Shown here piece after piece: positions 3,202 through 23,495 of a stretch of DNA of 32,000 nt; the first letter of the stretch is position 1, and each line of letters starts with the position of its first letter. Made by a program: the position numbers and the translations under genes. The stretch comes from Dehalococcoidia bacterium (GTDB lineage Bacteria > Chloroflexota > Dehalococcoidia > UBA6926): the NCBI GenBank assembly GCA_963666115.2, contig CAXXET010000004.1:339208-371207 (forward strand), written 5' to 3'. The notes under the pieces are model-generated. The model did no database searches. It saw only the letters and a list, made by a program, of their open reading frames with translations, and had not been told where the DNA came from.

Positions 3202-5646
3202 CTATCTCAGCGCGTCGGCGGCGGCGAGTTCGCGGGTTTCTTCCTGGCCGATGCCGAGAATCTCGGTGAGGATGGCGTCCGTGTGTTCGTTGAGCATGGG
3301 GGCTCGGCGGAGTTCGCCTGCGTATTCGCCGTTGACTTGCCAGGGGACTTTGGCGGTGCGGCGCGGGCCTGCCTCCGGGTGGTCGATTGTGGCGAAGAAG
3401 TTTCGCGCTTGGGGGTGGGGGTGTTCGACTACTTCCAGCGGGTCGAGGATGGGGGCGGCGGAGACGCCGACGGCGGCGAGTTCATCGGCCATGGTGTATT
3501 TGTCTCGCGACTTTGTCCACGCGGCGATGATGTCATCGAGCGCGGCCTCGTTCTGCTTGCGGGATTCAGGGGTGGCAAAGCGGCTATCGTTGGCAAGGTC
3601 GTTGATGGCGCTGGACAAGCCAGTCCATTCGGAATCAGTGCGGGCGGTTATGGCAATCCATTGGTCGTCACCGTTGGCGGGGTAGATGTTGTGGGGGGCG
3701 TGGAGGGGGTGGTGGGAGCCATCGCGTTGGGGCGTGTAGCTGCCCGTGGCGCGGGCGACCATCGGCTCCGTGATGAGCGTCATGAGGGCTTCGGTCATTG
3801 CGACGTCGACATGATGCCCCATGCCGGTGCGGCGGCGGTCGTGGAGCGCGGTCAGCGTGGCCATGGCGGCGTAGGTGGCGGAGACGACGTCCGGGAAGTA
3901 GGAGCCGAGCAGCCGCTGGTGGCCGCCTGCGTAGCCGGTGACGTCCGTGAGGCCGCAGAAGGCGTTGATGATGCTGTGGAGGCCGCTGTAGTCCTTGAGG
4001 GGGCCGCTCCTGCCAAAGGCGGCGACAGACGTGTAGATGACACGGGGGTTGAGGGGGGCGATGTCTTCATAGCCGAGTCCCCACCGCTCCATGAGGCCGG
4101 TGGAGAAGTTCTCAAGCACGATGTCCGCGGACGCACACAGGCGGCGGGCAACGCCCCTGCCCTCTTCGGTCCGGAGGTTGATGGGGATGGCGCGCTTGCC
4201 CATGCTGAGCGTGTTGTAGGCGCCGGCGCGGTTCATGCCGGGAATCTCATTGGCGAACGGGGGCGAGTTGCGGAAATCGGCGGGGTTCTCACGGCTCTCA
4301 ACCTGGATGACGTCCGCGCCGAGGGCGGCGAGCCACTTGGCGCAGTACGGGATGGCGATGTATTGGCCGAAGTCAATGACGCGGATGCCTTTCAGGGGGA
4401 GGGAGGGGGTGGGAGGATTCTTCGCTGCGCTCAGAATGACATCGTTTGCGTCAGTGGCATTGTTTGCGCCGTTGACTGATGTTGGCGCGGGGACGGAACC
4501 ATCGGCCTCCGGCTTGCCGGATTCGTTGCGGGGGTAGCCGGTGAGGATGAACGGCGCGCCGGTGAAAGGGACTTCCTGGCCGTCCTGCGTGGCAACCGCG
4601 CGGATGAAACGGCGCTCGCGGACGTGTTCGTGGGTCAGAACCTGGTCGAGGGTCGTGGACCAGAACGCGGGGATGTTGCGGGCTTGCAGCTCTTCTGTGA
4701 TTTCCTTGCCGGTACGCTCCATCGTCCAGTTGGTCATCAGGACGCTGACGACGTCCCAGTTCATGGCGCGCTTCGTGCCATCGTCGAAGTCCTCCGTGTA
4801 GGCCCACTCCGGGCTGCCCATGACCTCGGCGAACTGCTCCCAGTGGCGGGCGCTCATGGCGACGATGACGATCCAGCCGTCCTTGCACTCGATGTAGCAG
4901 TTGGGCTGGCGGGCAAGGATGTTGGGGCCGCGATCAAGCACACGCTCCAGGTATTCGCGCTGCAGAACGGGGTGGTAGTTGAGGGCGGTGACGGCCTCGA
5001 GTTCGGAGAGTTCGATGCGCGTGCCGGTGACGCCCGGCCCTGTTCCGTTGCCACTGCCGGATTCCGCGTAGAGCGTGGCGAGCGTGGCGACGACGCCGAC
5101 TGCGCCGGCCATGAGCGATGGGACGGACGCGCCGGTGGGCATGAGCGGCGGTTCATTGGGGAGATCATAGGTGGTGTCCGGCGGGCCGGGGGTGGTCCAC
5201 GCCATGCCGCAGAGCGACCACGTTGCGAGATCGCTGGGCGGGAGGTTCGCAAGCGGGCCGTCCGCGCCGTAGGGCGTGAGAGAGACGACGGTCAGATGGG
5301 GGTAGCGGGCGTGGATGGCGTCCCAATCAAGGAAGGAGTTGTCACCGTCGAACAGGCCAACGTCCTCGATGAGGATGTCCTGCCCATCAAGGGCTGCGAC
5401 CAGGGATTCCGGCGTGACGGTTTCGGCGTCAGTGTCAGAGCGGTGGGACTTGTTGGCGTTGAGGGAGCGGTGGAGCATGGGGTCCCATTCCGGCATTTCG
5501 CGTCCCTTGAGGCGGACGTAGAGGTTCCTCATGCGGCGGACGCGGTCGACGTCCGCGCCAAGCTCGCCGAGGAGGCGGGCGGCGTAGGCTCCGGCGAACG
5601 ATGCGGTGACATCGACAACTCGCAGATGCGACAGCGGACCTGACAT
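3202..5646 (-). CDS. Tandem-fused double family-III CoA-transferase (two CaiB/BaiF domains in one 814-aa chain)
   Basis: Domain 1 begins LRVVDVTASFAGAYAARLLGELGADV. Domain 2 begins LKGIRVIDFGQYIAIPYCAKWLAALGADVIQVE and shows ...NLRTEEGRGVARRLCASADIVLENF. AAGGGGG SD precedes the ATG at 5646. Confidence 0.8.
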   Translation of the reverse strand: MSGPLSHLRVVDVTASFAGAYAARLLGELGADVDRVRRMRNLYVRLKGREMPEWDPMLHRSLNANKSHRSDTDAETVTPESLVAALDGQDILIEDVGLFDGDNSFLDWDAIHARYPHLTVVSLTPYGADGPLANLPPSDLATWSLCGMAWTTPGPPDTTYDLPNEPPLMPTGASVPSLMAGAVGVVATLATLYAESGSGNGTGPGVTGTRIELSELEAVTALNYHPVLQREYLERVLDRGPNILARQPNCYIECKDGWIVIVAMSARHWEQFAEVMGSPEWAYTEDFDDGTKRAMNWDVVSVLMTNWTMERTGKEITEELQARNIPAFWSTTLDQVLTHEHVRERRFIRAVATQDGQEVPFTGAPFILTGYPRNESGKPEADGSVPAPTSVNGANNATDANDVILSAAKNPPTPSLPLKGIRVIDFGQYIAIPYCAKWLAALGADVIQVESRENPADFRNSPPFANEIPGMNRAGAYNTLSMGKRAIPINLRTEEGRGVARRLCASADIVLENFSTGLMERWGLGYEDIAPLNPRVIYTSVAAFGRSGPLKDYSGLHSIINAFCGLTDVTGYAGGHQRLLGSYFPDVVSATYAAMATLTALHDRRRTGMGHHVDVAMTEALMTLITEPMVARATGSYTPQRDGSHHPLHAPHNIYPANGDDQWIAITARTDSEWTGLSSAINDLANDSRFATPESRKQNEAALDDIIAAWTKSRDKYTMADELAAVGVSAAPILDPLEVVEHPHPQARNFFATIDHPEAGPRRTAKVPWQVNGEYAGELRRAPMLNEHTDAILTEILGIGQEETRELAAADALR
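4416..4441 (+). repeat. Repeat family A, copy A2, inside the CoA-transferase inter-domain linker
   Basis: Identical 26-mer. On the coding (minus) strand it is translated in frame as VILSAAKN. Confidence 0.9.
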
Positions 5647-7125: not shown

Positions 7126-7836
7126 TTACGGCACGTCCATGTTTTTGAGGCGGTGGAGGGTTAGGAGGGCGAAGAGGACGAGGACGATGGCTGCGCCGAC
7201 CAGGGCGGCGACGCCGTCGATTGAATTGGGCGTGAATATCTCGCCGTCGCTGGCCCATTCCATGACGGAGAGGGTGTAGCCGTTGATGCTGAGATACTTG
7301 ACGCCGGCGAGAATGTTTGAGGCAACGCCCTCCCACACGAATACGTACACGATGGCGAACGCGAGAGCCTGGCCGGTGACGAGTCCAAGCCACGTGAAGA
7401 TGGCGGAATAGCCGATGACGCCAATGGCGATGCCGAGAAGGAACGCGAGGAATGTCGTGCTCGCGGCGTCATAGACAAGCCAGCCGGTGACTACCGCAGA
7501 CACGCCCACCAGCGCGCCGCTCACGATTATGACGCCAACCAGCTTGGCGACCACGATCTCCCACCGCCCAATGGGCTTCATGGTGAGAAAGCCGAGTGTG
7601 CGATCCTCCACCTCATTGCCAAATGCCGGGGTGGCGGTGATAGCGACGGTCAGGGGCAGGACGATGGCAACGACGACCGCGCCGATGAACTCCTCTTCCG
7701 TCGCGGTGGTATCCGCATCGGACAACGCGCGAATCAGGAGCGTCACCCCTGCCGGAAGCAGGGCGAGCGCCAACAGGATGATCACCCGGCGAAGCCCGGT
7801 CACCTGCCGCAGCGTGAGCAAGAAGACCTGCATCAT
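7126..7836 (-). CDS. ABC-2 type (NosY-like) transporter permease
   Basis: Six hydrophobic segments. FGNEVEDRTLGFLTMKPIGRWEIVVAKL is typical of ABC-2 permeases. Last gene of the four-gene ABC unit. Confidence 0.7.
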   Translation of the reverse strand: MMQVFLLTLRQVTGLRRVIILLALALLPAGVTLLIRALSDADTTATEEEFIGAVVVAIVLPLTVAITATPAFGNEVEDRTLGFLTMKPIGRWEIVVAKLVGVIIVSGALVGVSAVVTGWLVYDAASTTFLAFLLGIAIGVIGYSAIFTWLGLVTGQALAFAIVYVFVWEGVASNILAGVKYLSINGYTLSVMEWASDGEIFTPNSIDGVAALVGAAIVLVLFALLTLHRLKNMDVP

Positions 7837-7853
7837 GTGTCTGTCCGCCTCGT

Positions 7854-8789
7854 TTACCGCGCCACCACGTAGGAGAAGACGCTTTCCAGCGATTCGTCGG
7901 TGGGTTCCACGCTGAATAGGGTCACGCCGCTGTCTTTGGCGGCGCGGGGCAGGAGCGACTGGAGGGCGACAATGTCCCGCGTCGTGATCATCACCGCGTC
8001 GTCCGGCTCCACCTTGACCGAGTCCACGGACTCATCGGCAAAGAGGGCGCCGGCCAATTGACGCGAGTCGCTTGCGCGGATCCGGATTTCATAGGGCCGC
8101 TCATCCAGCTTGGCGCGAATGGCGTGGAAGTTGCCGGAGGCGGCCAGGCGGCCGGCGACCATCAGGAGGATGGTGTCCGCGAGTTCCTCCACTTCTTCGA
8201 GGATGTGGGATGAGACGACGACAGCGCGGCCTTCCGCTGCCAGCCGGTGCGCCATGTCCTGGAACTCCAGTCGCTGGCGCGGGTCCGTGCCGTTCAACGG
8301 CTCATCCAGAACCAGGATGGGCGGGTCATGGACGAGGGTGGCAGCGAGGCGCATCCGCTGCCTCATGCCGCGCGAATAGGTGGCGAGCTTGCGGTCTTGC
8401 GCATCCAGCAGATTGACCGTGCTGATGGCCTTTTCGACGGCTTCATCCACGTTCGGGACCTTTTGAAGCTTCGCGTTCAGGGCCACGAATTGCCGGCCGG
8501 TGAGTTGATCATAGACGGACTGGTGCTCCGTCATCACGCCGATGCTCCGATACAGAGCCACGCTGCCGCGCACCGGCTGCCCCATGATCAGGATTTCCCC
8601 TCGGGAAACGGCAGAGAGTCCGGCGATCATGTGGAGGAGCGTCGTCTTGCCCGCGCCGTTGGGGCCCAGGAGGCCGGTGACGCCGGGGCCGATGTCCAAC
8701 GAGACCTCGTTGACGGCGACAAGGTTGCCGAACCACTTGGACACGCCGCGCACGGAGATCATCGGCTCCTGGGGAGATGTCGTCGTCAT
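7854..8789 (-). CDS. ABC transporter ATP-binding protein (intact)
   Basis: Walker A GPNGAGKTT, signature YSRGMRQR, Walker B ILVLDEP and H-loop SSH are all present. The start at 8789 forms an ATGA overlap with the upstream permease stop. Confidence 0.85.
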   Translation of the reverse strand: MTTTSPQEPMISVRGVSKWFGNLVAVNEVSLDIGPGVTGLLGPNGAGKTTLLHMIAGLSAVSRGEILIMGQPVRGSVALYRSIGVMTEHQSVYDQLTGRQFVALNAKLQKVPNVDEAVEKAISTVNLLDAQDRKLATYSRGMRQRMRLAATLVHDPPILVLDEPLNGTDPRQRLEFQDMAHRLAAEGRAVVVSSHILEEVEELADTILLMVAGRLAASGNFHAIRAKLDERPYEIRIRASDSRQLAGALFADESVDSVKVEPDDAVMITTRDIVALQSLLPRAAKDSGVTLFSVEPTDESLESVFSYVVAR

Positions 8790-9865
8790 TGCGTGAACCC
8801 CCGATAGCGCCACCACAGGATTCCGACGGGAATGAGCACGAGCGCGGCATACACGCCGGCCACGCCGATGACGGGCAGGTCTCTAATAAGCGGCGTCCAG
8901 AAGTCGCCCTGTTGAATCTCAGCTGACCGGTCCGAATCAAACATCCAGTCGATGAGGATGGTCACGGCGGAGTCGGGCGCTAACAACAGCAGCCATCCCG
9001 CGGCGTCGCCCGCGAGAGCGGTGCATTCCTGCGTGACGGTCACGCCCTCAGGAGCGTTGAGCTCCGCCAATTCGGATTCCGTGAGGCCCGGACTTCCGAA
9101 CTCGGTACTCGTTATTGTCCCCGTCACAACCATCTCTTCCGTCGCGGGGTCACGCTCCCGGGTAGTCGTCACCGTCTCGCATGTGGGAGACGCAAAGATG
9201 CCCGGGACGACGTTCAGCAGCAAGATGCAGGTGATCAGGGTAGCGGCCACGTAGACACGCCGGGCGAAGAACGTGGAGAGCGCCAAGGGAATGGTCGTGA
9301 TGAAGAGGGCAATCATCGCGACGGCGACGATGCTGAGGGGGATGTCGGTCCACTCGTCGCGGAAGCGTTCGGCGGGGTCAGTCGACCCGATATAGGAGAC
9401 GCCAATCATGACGGCGAGGCCAATACAGATGAGGATGAAAACTGCGCTGACGAATGCCAGCCACCGCATGGTCACGTAATCGAAGATGCCCAGGGGCCGC
9501 ACGAGGTAGAGGGAGAGGACGTTTTCGCGGCGGTCAGGGATCAGGAGTTCCGGCGCGCTGATAGACGCGAGCAGGAACAGGAGGAGGATGATCCCGCCGA
9601 AGTATTGCTGGACGGGCGGGAGGTTCACTTCTCCGCCGCCGCTGAACGCGACTGGGATGACGACCAGGATCAGGGCCATGCCGACAGTGACGACACCCAT
9701 GAGGGCGGGGAGCACCTTCGCGCGTCCGCCGCGGCCAATGCCGAAGACCTGCCGCACGCCGTTGACGTACAAGGCCAGCAGGGCATTGGCCCGCCCGGCG
9801 CGCGGGCCGTCGTACGGCTGGTAGCCGATGTCAAAGAGTTCGCCGGTTTGCTGCTGCTCGGTCAT
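8786..9865 (-). CDS. ABC-2 family permease-like membrane protein with a large extracytoplasmic loop
   Basis: Multiple TM segments and an approximately 80-aa hydrophilic Cys-containing loop (PTCETVTT...QECTALAG). ATGA overlap with the upstream ATPase gene. Confidence 0.65.
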   Translation of the reverse strand: MTEQQQTGELFDIGYQPYDGPRAGRANALLALYVNGVRQVFGIGRGGRAKVLPALMGVVTVGMALILVVIPVAFSGGGEVNLPPVQQYFGGIILLLFLLASISAPELLIPDRRENVLSLYLVRPLGIFDYVTMRWLAFVSAVFILICIGLAVMIGVSYIGSTDPAERFRDEWTDIPLSIVAVAMIALFITTIPLALSTFFARRVYVAATLITCILLLNVVPGIFASPTCETVTTTRERDPATEEMVVTGTITSTEFGSPGLTESELAELNAPEGVTVTQECTALAGDAAGWLLLLAPDSAVTILIDWMFDSDRSAEIQQGDFWTPLIRDLPVIGVAGVYAALVLIPVGILWWRYRGFTQ

Positions 9866-10548
9866 GCGGTGGCATCCCCGTTTTCGCCACGGAATATCTC
9901 GGTCAACATACGGCGGCGCGGGGCCATGCGCCGGATGGGCGCGCCGATCTCCAACACCGCGTCCAGCACAGTGTCATTGTGCAGGTTCGGCTCATCCTGC
10001 GGCACCAGCACGGAACTGCCCTCTATGGTGGCGGTGATGCCGCGCGCGGCCAATGCGGCCACGAGCGCTTCCTGGTTGGGTCCGACGTCCACCGCCAGGG
10101 TCTGCGTGTCTCCCGTGAATCCCTCGACGGAGCCTTCACGCGCAACCCGGCCGCCCTCAAGGACGATGATGTTTTCGCAAGTACGCTCAACCTCGCCCAT
10201 GAGGTGGGAGGAGAACACGACGCTGATGCCGAAATCCGTGCCGGTGCGCCGAACAAGGGAGAGCATATCGTCGCGGCTTTCCGGATCGAGGCCGGCGGTC
10301 GGCTCATCGAGCAGGATCAGCCTGGGGTCGTGGACAAGAGCCTGGGCGAGCTTGGCGCGCTGCTTCATGCCGGTGGAGTATTCGCCCATGCTTCGGAATC
10401 GCTCCTCGTGCATTCCGACGTGGCGGAGAGTATCGGATGCGCGTGAGCGGGCTTCGCCGGGCGGGAGGCCACTCACGCTATCGAGGGCAAGAACCCTGCC
10501 GTAACGCTTGGTCAGGTTGGTCGCTTCGAGGAGGGGGGCTGTTTCCAT
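9862..10548 (-). CDS. ABC ATPase homologue lacking Walker A and Q-loop (in-frame deletion; possible pseudogene)
   Basis: LLEATNLTKRYGRVLALDSVS runs directly into GLPPGEARSRASDTLRHVGM...YSTGMKQR...LILLDEPTAGLD...SSH. Compared with the paralogue at 7854-8789, about 75-80 residues including GxxGxGKT are absent. Confidence 0.7.
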   Translation of the reverse strand: METAPLLEATNLTKRYGRVLALDSVSGLPPGEARSRASDTLRHVGMHEERFRSMGEYSTGMKQRAKLAQALVHDPRLILLDEPTAGLDPESRDDMLSLVRRTGTDFGISVVFSSHLMGEVERTCENIIVLEGGRVAREGSVEGFTGDTQTLAVDVGPNQEALVAALAARGITATIEGSSVLVPQDEPNLHNDTVLDAVLEIGAPIRRMAPRRRMLTEIFRGENGDATA

Positions 10549-10554
10549 GAAAGC

Positions 10555-10583
10555 AGGATAGCGGATTCGGATTGTCAAGCCAA
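10555..10583 (-). promoter_or_regulatory. Candidate promoter TTGGCT-17 nt-TATCCT with the ATG 6 nt after the -10 (leaderless type)
   Basis: The rc of 10578-10583 is TTGGCT and the rc of 10555-10560 is TATCCT. gctttc then precedes the ATG at 10548. No SD is present. Confidence 0.4.
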
Positions 10584-19026: not shown

Positions 19027-19101
<75 letters not shown>

Positions 19102-19161: not shown

Positions 19162-19226
19162 GGCGGTCATTTTGCACTGACCGGCGGTCTTTTCCAGTGG
19201 GTAGGAAACGAGGTTAAGTAGTAAGC

Positions 19227-22218
<2,992 letters not shown>

Positions 22219-22374: not shown

Positions 22375-22463
22375 TGAGCGCCCTTCGACAAGCTCAGGGT
22401 GACCGGAGGGTGGCTGGTAGAATTGGGGGGTAGCGACGGCCAGAAGGCGGCGAGGGGGGATGC

Positions 22464-23495
22464 ATGCAGCTTCGGAAACTATCCGGCGGACTCAAGGATG
22501 CGTACCGCGGGTCGAACGTCGCCGGCCGCGTGCGAGATTTCGACGGATGGCTCGCCAGGGCGTCCGCCGATGACGGGGACGGCTACGACCACGCGGCAAC
22601 GGTCAAGGAATACTACGACCTGTGCAGCGAGTTCATGGTGTACGGATGGGGCGAGTCCCTGCACTTCGCTCCCCTTTCGCCCACGGAGAGCCTGGAGGAG
22701 TCCAAGGCACGGCACCAGCGGTTGATGATCGAGAAGCTGGAGCTTGCGGAGGGGATGACGGTCATCGACGTTGGCTGCGGGCTGGGCGGGCCGATGCGCC
22801 GCGTGGTCAGCGAGGGCGGCGTCAGGGTCGTTGGAATCAGCAACAGCGAACTCCAGTTGGAGAAGGCGCGCGCGCTGAATGCCGAGGCGGGAATCGACGA
22901 CATGGTCGATTACGTGGCGTGCAACTTCATGGACATGGGCGTTATTGCGGACAACACGTTCGACCGGGGATACGCGATTGAATCCACGTGCCACGCGCCG
23001 GACAAGGCAGGCGCGTTCGCGGAGATCTACCGGGTGCTGAAGCCGGGCGCGCTGCTGTGGGGCCAGGAGATGTGCATGACGGACGCGTTCAATCCCGATG
23101 ACGATCAGCATCGCACCATCAAGCAGGACCTCATGCGCGGCATTGCGCTCAACGGCATCGCGACGACGCAGGAGGTGGACTGGACGCTGGAAGCGGTAGG
23201 GTTCGAGGTGATCGAGGGTATGGATCGGGGCGTGGTGGAGGACGATTTGGCGACGCCGTGGTACAGGCCGATGGAGAATCGGCACGGGACGGTGGGCAAC
23301 GCCCTGCGGAGGACGCCGCTGGGGCGCAAGGGGATCATGTGGGGGTCAAAGCTGGCGGAGTTGGCCAGGGTATTTCCCAAGGGGTCTACGGACGTGATCG
23401 GGCTGCTGGACCGGACGGCGAATGCGTACGTGGCGGGCGGGAAGACGGGGATATTTTCGCCGCTCTATTGTTTTTTGGCGCGGAAGCCGGGTTAG
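22464..23495 (+). CDS. Sterol 24-C-methyltransferase (ERG6/SMT) family SAM-dependent methyltransferase
   Basis: Colinear with yeast ERG6 across the whole length: YYDLCSEFMVYGWGESLHF (region I), VIDVGCGLGGP (SAM site), NTFDRGYAIESTCHAP (region III), YRVLKPG, PWYRPM, and C-terminal AGGKTGIFSPLYCFLARKP. GAGGGGGG SD. Confidence 0.85.
   Translation: MQLRKLSGGLKDAYRGSNVAGRVRDFDGWLARASADDGDGYDHAATVKEYYDLCSEFMVYGWGESLHFAPLSPTESLEESKARHQRLMIEKLELAEGMTVIDVGCGLGGPMRRVVSEGGVRVVGISNSELQLEKARALNAEAGIDDMVDYVACNFMDMGVIADNTFDRGYAIESTCHAPDKAGAFAEIYRVLKPGALLWGQEMCMTDAFNPDDDQHRTIKQDLMRGIALNGIATTQEVDWTLEAVGFEVIEGMDRGVVEDDLATPWYRPMENRHGTVGNALRRTPLGRKGIMWGSKLAELARVFPKGSTDVIGLLDRTANAYVAGGKTGIFSPLYCFLARKPG

Follow-up and report, generated by a model that had tools for sequence, protein, structure and literature searches.

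The stretch of DNA considered here, referred to throughout as the window (the whole 32-kb stretch that was analysed), comes from a Dehalococcoidia bacterium and carries an open reading frame (ORF) whose product resembles the sterol 24-C-methyltransferases (SMTs) of eukaryotes, known in yeast as ERG6. A previous reading of the letters alone (the sequence-only reading) had labelled this product a full-length sterol 24-C-methyltransferase homologue. We find that the gene is a member of this known superfamily and a distinct variant of it, placed on a separate lineage, substituted in the sterol pocket, and related to signature-bearing proteins reported to be inactive, so that annotating the window protein as a sterol 24-C-methyltransferase would be an over-call. 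The features of the gene and its product, an S-adenosylmethionine (SAM)-dependent methyltransferase, are as follows.

22464 to 23495, + strand, stop codon included: SMT-like SAM-dependent methyltransferase ORF of 343 aa with ATG start (ORF list)
22452 to 22459, + strand: predicted Shine-Dalgarno-like purine run GAGGGGGG, 5-12 nt before the ATG (read from the sequence)
22593 to 23216, + strand: class-I (Rossmann-fold) methyltransferase core, residues 44-251 (Pfam CMAS, Methyltransf_11, Methyltransf_25 and others; AlphaFold2, AF2; Foldseek)
22626 to 22667, + strand: Region I, sterol-binding segment, residues 55-68, SEFMVYGWGESLHF (alignments)
22767 to 22793, + strand: SAM-binding motif DVGCGLGGP (Region II), residues 102-110, followed by the lineage-typical MRRV (alignments)
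22971 to 23000, + strand: Region III YAIESTCHAP, residues 170-179, E173 corresponding to yeast E195 (alignments)
23064 to 23084, + strand: QEMCMTD, residues 201-207, with M203 at the Trp of the canonical YEW (yeast about W225; alignment)
23139 to 23150, + strand: invariant G226-I227-A228-L229, I227 aligning with yeast position 249 (alignments)
23304 to 23489, + strand: Sterol_MT_C (PF08498), residues 281-342 (Pfam)

The ORF lies exactly where the sequence-only reading had placed it, and the four motifs on which that reading relied are all present, namely YGWGESLHF (residues 60-68), DVGCGLGGP, YAIESTCHAP and the C-terminal GGKTGIFSPLYCFLARKP (residues 325-342), the residue pattern DxGxGxxGP of the SAM site being invariant within the clade. 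The SMT C-terminal domain PF08498 is matched at 51.8 bits against a cutoff of 21.7, which is Pfam evidence for SMT homology far beyond chance, and BLASTP aligns window residues 19-342 with yeast ERG6 at 35% identity over 333 aa (pairwise E 3e-67), the ERG6 sequence that was used reproducing every numbering anchor of the literature. Identity to fungal ERG6, rice SMT1 and Poriferisocius SMT representatives ranges from 31 to 39%, more than 120 homologues can be aligned from residue 1 of the window protein, and an identical protein (P0001) is found in NCBI/ENA on a contig of 536,711 bp. Membership in the cyclopropane fatty acid (CFA) or mycolate methyltransferases was rejected, as the corresponding NCBIfam models score 34-51 bits against cutoffs of 390-650 and the C-terminal domain is SMT-specific; the Pfam CMAS match itself is limited to profile positions 7-214 of 273. 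NCBIfam has no SMT model and even fungal ERG6 matches only its generic methyltransferase models, so this resource cannot be used to decide membership. Judged by these alignments the window protein is a true homologue of the SMT/ERG6 superfamily and not a generic class-I methyltransferase, and in this respect the claim of full-length colinearity with ERG6 is borne out.

Closer inspection of the residues expected to line the sterol pocket gives a different picture. Of the 25 positions conserved in every SMT shown to be active (Brown and Welander, 2025, preprint), the window protein retains 23, including H90, E195, D125, G127, G129 and P133 (yeast numbering), which are invariant, and the two exceptions are T78→S and F89→L. 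Within Region I, S55 takes the place of yeast T78, M58 that of Y81 and L66 that of F89, so that the aromatic set is partly lost (Y81 and F89 gone; Y/F83, W85 and F91 kept). The Region I match cited by the sequence-only reading exists as a motif, but hides the clade-fixed Y81M and F89L at key positions of the sterol pocket. Among 120 close homologues Leu stands at position 89 in all 120, Met at position 81 in 119 and Ile at position 249 in all 120, and 84 positions are invariant across 54 clade members; in the canonical representatives, on the other hand, position 81, where a Tyr or Phe touches the side chain of the sterol, is Tyr in 61 of 68 (A2 alignment) or 87 of 106 (another set) and Met in none of the 68. 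The Trp position of YEW is likewise Met in 15 of 16 sequences of the divergent group and Trp in 59 of 68 canonical ones in the diverse alignment, and at position 78 the divergent lineage carries S, G or N instead of T. Positions 81, 89, 225 and 249 are thus conserved inside both groups and different between them. An apparent 3-residue insertion at yeast position 249 in the pairwise BLAST alignment was rejected, because the diverse MAFFT alignment is gapless there and equates I227 with 249. It has been reported that in almost every model Y81 and residue 249 come within 5 Å of the docked sterol, and that residue 249 sets the number of methylations in bacterial SMTs, G249I retaining the first methylation only (Brown and Welander, 2025, preprint). 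In soybean SMT1, aromatic-to-Leu changes in Region I abolish the second methylation. By analogy with these two mutant precedents, the enzyme of the window lineage probably adds a single methyl.

The same division is seen in the phylogeny. In a neighbour-joining (NJ) tree of 119 SMT-family representatives, the window clade together with relatives of 40-55% identity (P0121-P0126) forms a separate lineage in 198 of 200 bootstraps, and in 200 of 200 with MitM as outgroup, the MitM core fragment not separating a position sister to the canonical SMTs from one nested in them. The other side of the tree comprises fungal ERG6, rice cycloartenol-C24-methyltransferase and bacterial proteins that NCBI names "sterol methyltransferase." The sequence-only reading had named placement outside the SMT clade, for example with CFA or mycolate methyltransferases, as a result that would count against it; the protein does fall outside the clade of all characterised SMTs, but not with either of those families. 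The division is mirrored in the names that NCBI assigns, the canonical bacterial paralogue being called "sterol methyltransferase" or "sterol 24-C-methyltransferase family protein" and proteins of the divergent lineage receiving just the general names "class I SAM-dependent methyltransferase" or "methyltransferase domain-containing protein." With JGI/KEGG-style annotation both types would probably be called ERG6, and the 24-methylation capacity counted in sponge metagenomes could then be too high.

Members of the lineage appear to have been assayed already. Proteins bearing its signature were negative on desmosterol and 24-methylenecholesterol in a recent preprint (Brown and Welander, 2025, preprint), whose text counts 11 inactive SMTs and names four of them; the no-activity group is taken here as the last 11 rows of its Supplementary Figure 1, which agree with that count and contain the four named proteins. 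In the legible part of that alignment, the four proteins below carry the GGPMRRV fingerprint of Region II.

A. aerophoba JGIcombinedJ30088_10000835 "2 of 2," gene 9: GGPMRRV.REAGVRVVGIN; FWGQ[E/D]M
Nitrospira coral-reef metagenome-assembled genome (MAG) "2 of 2" (2682229270): GGPMRRV.REAGVRVVGIN
P. ficiformis LXNJ01004423: GGPMRRVARESG; FWGQ[E/D]M
Theonella Chromatiales MAG "2 of 2" (2690456335): GGPMRRVARESG

The Region II consensus of the window clade is VIDVGCGIGGPMRRVVREAGVRVVGVN, vs GGP.R[ES]IARFSGA in all active SMTs of the same figure, and the block at yeast 200-225 reads APDK..AFAEIFRVLKPGA.FWGQ[D/E]M in the A. aerophoba and Petrosia proteins and APDKAGAFAEIYRVLKPGALLWGQEM in the window protein, while canonical SMTs end this block in YEW. 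By these signature blocks, so far as they can be made out, the four published inactive SMTs would be members of the window lineage, and three of the inactive homologues are listed in Brown's table with about 35% identity to ERG6, like the window protein. The A. aerophoba protein (gene 9, 35.2% to ERG6 in Supplementary Data 1) is encoded two genes from a propylating SMT, gene 11, beside which lie a squalene monooxygenase/oxidosqualene cyclase (SMO/OSC) fusion, ERG11, ERG24, sdmA and sdmB (genes 12-16), and this arrangement recurs in the Nitrospira MAG (Brown et al., 2023; PMC10070321). For both of these inactive "2 of 2" homologues the distance to a functional SMT, an SMO/OSC fusion, CYP51, ERG24 and sdmAB is thus 2-4 genes. 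Within the limits of the legible alignment, then, the lineage is one that has been assayed and is inactive on the standard substrates, yet is embedded in sterol pathways. Absence of methylation of any delta-24 sterol, the other result that the sequence-only reading had set against itself, is thereby seen in part, through these four partly legible signature proteins only. Two substrates were assayed, both of them 4-desmethyl sterols, and the authors note that other substrates may be needed (Brown and Welander, 2025, preprint).

The dN/dS of the gene is 0.11-0.17 against relatives, with the window's own orphan-context subgroup included, and this shows that the SMT-like gene is maintained by strong purifying selection; a pseudogene reading was rejected on the same values. 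An AF2 model built from the diverse alignment reached a pLDDT of 92.3 and a pTM of 0.91, a first model having been discarded for its shallow alignment (71-88% identity), pLDDT of 63.7 and disordered pocket segments. The nearest solved folds in a Foldseek search of the PDB are MitM, RebM/AtmM, TleD, GPP-MT, FPP-MT and CFA synthases (TM scores 0.6-0.68), and as the PDB holds no SMT structure, fold matches are limited to related small-molecule and alkene C-methyltransferases. The predicted fold would fit an alkene or enol C-methylating enzyme and does not discriminate between substrates.

Gene context was compared in 80 genome loci, those of the best 80 relatives (71-87% identical), whose loci are given L-numbers below. 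An MMPL/HAE3 transporter of the resistance-nodulation-division (RND) type, with matches to the sterol-sensing domain and Patched, occurs in about 53 of the 80 and is adjacent upstream and co-directional in about 45; a GPP34-cytochrome P450 fusion lies near the SMT-like gene in 53, a Rieske/KshA_C oxygenase in 47, an FAD amine-oxidase-like protein in 29, and an LppX/LprG-type lipoprotein and an MFS transporter in 17 each. The P450 has its nearest solved relatives in the CYP51 sterol 14-demethylases, with scores of only about 70 bits, the Rieske protein can be aligned to KshA over its full length (E 5e-27), the best curated matches of the transporter are HAE3 and HpnN, and the FAD protein shows weak similarity of HpnE/PPO type. 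The Rieske, MMPL and SMT genes of L008 form an operon-like row, either overlapping or directly adjoining one another. The whole module of LppX/LprG-like, MFS, Rieske/KshA-like, MMPL and SMT-like genes plus the convergent GPP34-P450 and an FAD gene is conserved in sponge-associated Dehalococcoidia (L008:6322-14691, L010:3853-14721 and some 50 further loci, e.g., L077, L069, L050), and none of its members attains a curated family cutoff. The fusion of GPP34 (GOLPH3-like, PF05719) N-terminal to a P450, as at L069:11076-13103 (- strand), is an unusual one. No signature motifs of OSC or squalene-hopene cyclase (SHC), and no CYP51, ERG24 or sdmAB, were found in the ±10 kb flanks of the 80 loci. A search of the accessible literature returned no description of the conserved lipoprotein-MFS-Rieske-MMPL-SMT module, nor is the lineage recognised there as a separate sponge-restricted subfamily linked to a transporter and oxygenases.

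In five loci a canonical SMT paralogue lies 1-8 kb from the divergent copy, with 39-40% identity to the window protein, a Region I of the type T-Y/F-Y/F-F and Gly at yeast position 249, a residue reported to be necessary for 24-isopropyl formation.

L024:17229-18242, - strand: canonical SMT paralogue
L040:18083-19096, - strand: canonical SMT paralogue
L071:14444-15454, - strand: canonical SMT paralogue
L093:8130-9014, - strand: canonical SMT paralogue
L095:6208-7092, - strand: canonical SMT paralogue

One Ca. Poriferisocius contig of 3,431,372 bp also appears, from its matching length, to carry both SMT types. A further conserved context, the third, is shared by L009, L011, L012 and L013, with sarcosine-oxidase-alpha-like and DAO flavoproteins upstream and a carboxyltransferase and an MFS gene downstream. 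The window itself, L001-L007 and the contig of P0004 form one monophyletic subgroup with the fixed context 23S rRNA/SMT/M20/QueA, in genomes of about 1.9-2.1 Mb, and in this subgroup none of the partner genes (MMPL, P450, Rieske) is nearby.

Relatives of the window protein are found in 369 GTDB species genomes and more than 2,300 protein clusters. The best 80 are mostly labelled as MAGs of Dehalococcoidia or SAR202, and others among them as Ca. Poriferisocius/Acidimicrobiia, Ca. Dadabacteria and Rhodospirillaceae; the copies of 71-74% identity under other phylum labels are L053 and L074 (Ca. Poriferisocius), L035 and L075 (Acidimicrobiia), L058 (Ca. Dadabacteria) and L067 (Rhodospirillaceae bin65). 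Since these copies nest among those of Dehalococcoidia in an unbootstrapped NJ tree, horizontal transfer of the SMT-like gene between sponge symbionts is suggested, and the lineage has probably been exchanged in this way by symbionts labelled as four phyla. L053 is a closed chromosome of 3.57 Mb, and short contigs may be mis-binned; the MMPL gene directly upstream of the SMT-like copy is present in L058 and L067 as well. A scan of 241 million metagenome records gave 39 matches, and every traceable contig prefix belongs to a sponge metagenome, the source of the prefixes MKWU, Ga0209543 and JGI2479x being unverified. According to the tables of Brown et al., LXNJ is Petrosia ficiformis, LXNI is Sarcotragus foetidus, and JGIcombinedJ30088, Ga0209021, Ga0209754 and Ga0209544 are Aplysina aerophoba. 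As far as sources can be traced, the lineage occurs in sponge microbiomes only. An SMT homologue of a bacterium in a sponge setting is not new by itself, because sponge MAGs, those of Dehalococcoidia among them, have been reported to be enriched in SMT/ERG6 homologues and ERG24-CYP51-OSC clusters, with horizontal transfer of both (Kelly et al., 2022), in agreement with the statement of the sequence-only reading that bacterial homologues were known.

The host of the window is a Dehalococcoidia (Chloroflexota) bacterium, because its 23S rRNA is 97.8-98.3% identical to that of the Dehalococcoidia MAGs L001, L002, L005 and L007, which also share 15-17 kb of synteny with the window at 81-84% identity; the Chloroflexota context proposed from the letters alone is thus supported, and the gene does lie beside an rRNA gene and among housekeeping genes. 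The bacterial 23S rRNA gene (19225-22218, - strand) is situated 245 bp upstream of the SMT-like gene and has no adjoining 16S or 5S gene. A tRNA-Met (19027-19101, - strand) stands in the usual place of 5S beside the 23S gene, and for this reason the rRNA genes of the host appear to be unlinked. Downstream of the SMT-like gene follow an M20 peptidase, QueA, cupredoxin, FolD, ACP synthase, Nnr/YjeF and an NmrA-like protein; the upstream side holds a CoA-transferase, an amidohydrolase, ABC transporter genes, a PEP-mutase-like protein, AIM24, PfkB, a nucleoside hydrolase and NuoF. Among about 38 ORFs of the window annotated with Pfam there was none for OSC, squalene epoxidase, CYP51, ERG24 or sdmAB, as had been said of sterol genes from the sequence alone. 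The ABC block of the window (7126-10578, - strand), 12 kb upstream of the SMT-like gene, consists of an ABC-2 permease, an ATPase, an unknown protein and a further ATPase; its homologues stand directly upstream of the MMPL-SMT pair in L025, L036 and L079, and the block may be a remnant of an ancestral arrangement. An 814-aa product containing two stretches of CoA-transferase family III is encoded at 3202-5646 (- strand) of the window, and a family III CoA-transferase lies directly downstream of the SMT-like gene in Ca. Poriferisocius/Acidimicrobiia loci (L074:11070-12407; homologous ORFs in L053 and L075). CoA-transferase family III includes enzymes of steroid and bile-acid side-chain metabolism.

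The reading that we put forward, to which we give an even chance, is that the product is an active SAM-dependent C-methyltransferase within the SMT/ERG6 superfamily, one that would have diverged in function and act on a non-standard sterol-type substrate. We infer its catalytic activity, the sterol nature of the substrate, the addition of a single methyl and the origin of the sterol along the following lines. SAM would bind at the conserved DxGxGxxGP site, a polycyclic sterol-type lipid would enter the remodelled, less aromatic pocket (Y81M, F89L, W225M, Ile 249), and one methyl would pass to a nucleophilic carbon, either alkene or enol. The substrate would be other than desmosterol or 24-methylenecholesterol, candidates being the product of the canonical paralogue (e.g., a delta-25 sterol), a 4-methylated intermediate from early in the pathway or a sterol in oxidised (3-oxo) form, and it may come from the sponge host or from a synthesis encoded outside the window. 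A link between the lineage and sterol pathways is seen in the "2 of 2" clusters and in the five loci with canonical paralogues, and by analogy with nematode 4-SMT and the algal triterpene methyltransferases, changes in Region I may well shift specificity in the SMT family. Several points weigh on the other side. Activity has been demonstrated in none of the lineage members, and the only assays, made on lineage relatives, were negative; assignment of those relatives to the lineage rests on two partly legible blocks of 26-29 residues and not on full sequences. The P450, the Rieske protein and the transporter do not come near the cutoffs of the curated models for CYP51, SdmA, BstA and HpnN, matches to the sterol-sensing domain in Pfam are common in RND/MMPL proteins and are no proof of sterol transport, and in the window itself the sterol, transporter (RND) and oxygenase partners are all missing.

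A more specific version, which we hold to be unlikely, would be a new regiochemistry or substrate class, for example C-26/27 methylation of the delta-25 products of the neighbouring canonical SMT, or methylation of oxidised host sterols that the linked RND transporter would import or export. Bacterial canonical SMTs make delta-25 sterols. C-26/27 methylation of delta-25 sterols leads to the aplysterol-type 26-methyl sterols of sponges, and to our knowledge no enzyme has been identified for this step. For C-26/27 methylation, the argument is drawn only from co-location and from general sponge-sterol chemistry.

Three other explanations have to be weighed against a diverged sterol-type methyltransferase. 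The protein might be a conventional sterol C-24 methyltransferase after all, the negative results of its relatives reflecting poor expression in E. coli lysates or a requirement for some other delta-24 substrate (lanosterol, cycloartenol or zymosterol, for example). Colinearity with the whole of ERG6, the SMT C-terminal domain and the 23 of 25 functional residues are in keeping with this, as is the narrow range of the published assay, with just two 4-desmethyl substrates and authors who allow for others; in plant SMT1 and certain fungal SMTs the preference is for 4,4-dimethyl substrates. We regard it as quite unlikely all the same, given that four independent signature proteins, so far as the alignment is legible, were inactive where most canonical bacterial SMTs worked, that Y81, F89 and W225 are replaced throughout the clade, that the lineage is placed outside the clade of characterised SMTs, and that a canonical SMT in the same cluster argues against redundancy. 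The idea of a catalytically silent protein, either a sterol- or SAM-binding regulator or chaperone or a decaying paralogue, takes up the same negative assays together with the two changed functional residues of 25 and the detachment of the window copy from pathway genes. It is very improbable, as the SAM-binding and proposed catalytic residues (D125, G127, G129, P133, H90, E195) are invariant, purifying selection is strong, the lineage has been conserved across 369 species genomes, the AF2 model has high confidence, and clade-fixed substitutions are not expected of a decaying gene.

There is also the view that the substrate is a non-sterol isoprenoid, i.e., squalene, a hopanoid or another triterpenoid or polyprenyl lipid, whose methylated product would be exported by the HpnN-like RND neighbour. 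As the available description has it, Botryococcus TMT-1/2/3, SMT-like enzymes with variant sterol-binding domains, methylate squalene or botryococcene and not sterols (Niehaus et al., 2012, as summarised in PMC3533583), and this precedent is joined by the HAE3 and HpnN matches of the transporter, the weak HpnE/PPO likeness of the FAD protein, the terpenoid C-methyltransferases TleD, GPP-MT and FPP-MT among the structural neighbours, and the absence of OSC from all 80 flanks. Yet the lineage is part of de novo sterol clusters in two published genomes, where it stands beside a functional SMT, the best structural or sequence matches of the partner proteins are the steroid enzymes KshA and CYP51, squalene/hopene cyclase genes were likewise not seen in the flanks, and the Hpn similarities lie far below cutoffs, so that a non-sterol substrate seems improbable to us.

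The identity of the substrate bears on more than one annotation. The 24-alkyl and 26-methyl steranes serve as the oldest chemical evidence for animals (sponges), and bacterial SMTs already complicate this evidence. If the proposal of a new regiochemistry or substrate class were true, "sponge-specific" sterane biomarkers would have a bacterial enzymatic source. The gene is part of a second SMT-like lineage that is very abundant, under strong selection, linked to sterol clusters or to genes of steroid-type transport and oxidation, and inactive on the standard substrates. Its substrate would reveal either an unrecognised methylation of sterols or triterpenoids by symbionts, possibly of host sterols, or an over-counting of SMTs in databases, in which case many "SMT" annotations from sponge metagenomes would have to be left out of estimates of 24-methylation capacity.

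Compared with the canonical SMTs (ERG6, SMT1/SMT2 and the active bacterial SMTs; PMC10070321), the window protein shares the class-I core plus PF08498 at about 30-40% identity and keeps the SAM motif, H90, E195, G217, W286 and the C-terminal G/F/P residues, and some members of its lineage share their gene clusters. It departs from them in Y81M, F89L, T78S/G/N, W225M and Ile 249, in its separate branch, in the inactivity of lineage members on desmosterol and 24-methylenecholesterol (as far as the preprint alignment identifies them), and in the usual neighbours of the lineage, which are RND/GPP34-P450/KshA-like Rieske genes and not OSC/CYP51/ERG24/sdmAB. Two of the four inactive SMTs of the "2 of 2" type are located inside complete sterol clusters, whereas the window copy stands beside 23S rRNA and housekeeping genes. 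The linked transporter is comparable to BstA and HpnN (PMC10942540) in being an MMPL-family RND protein encoded beside triterpenoid-pathway genes; however, the Dehalococcoidia protein scores 26 bits against BstA (cutoff 1400) and 59-102 against the HpnN models (cutoffs 752-1100), and as these scores are far below the cutoffs it belongs to a different family. In its variant Region I the SMT-like window protein recalls the Botryococcus TMTs, to which it is likened by their description only; those enzymes are eukaryotic (algal) with linear triterpenes as substrates, and no algal TMT was found among the other variant-Region-I representatives looked up. Finally, the 4-SMT/STRM-1 enzymes of nematodes and dinoflagellates have a remodelled Region I, methylate the sterol at another carbon (C-4), need 3-oxo sterols and are inactive on 3-beta-OH sterols (PMC6997595; PMC9136925), but with about 21% identity to ERG6 they lack the Region I aromatics altogether, whereas the window protein, at 35%, keeps Y/F83, W85, H90 and F91.

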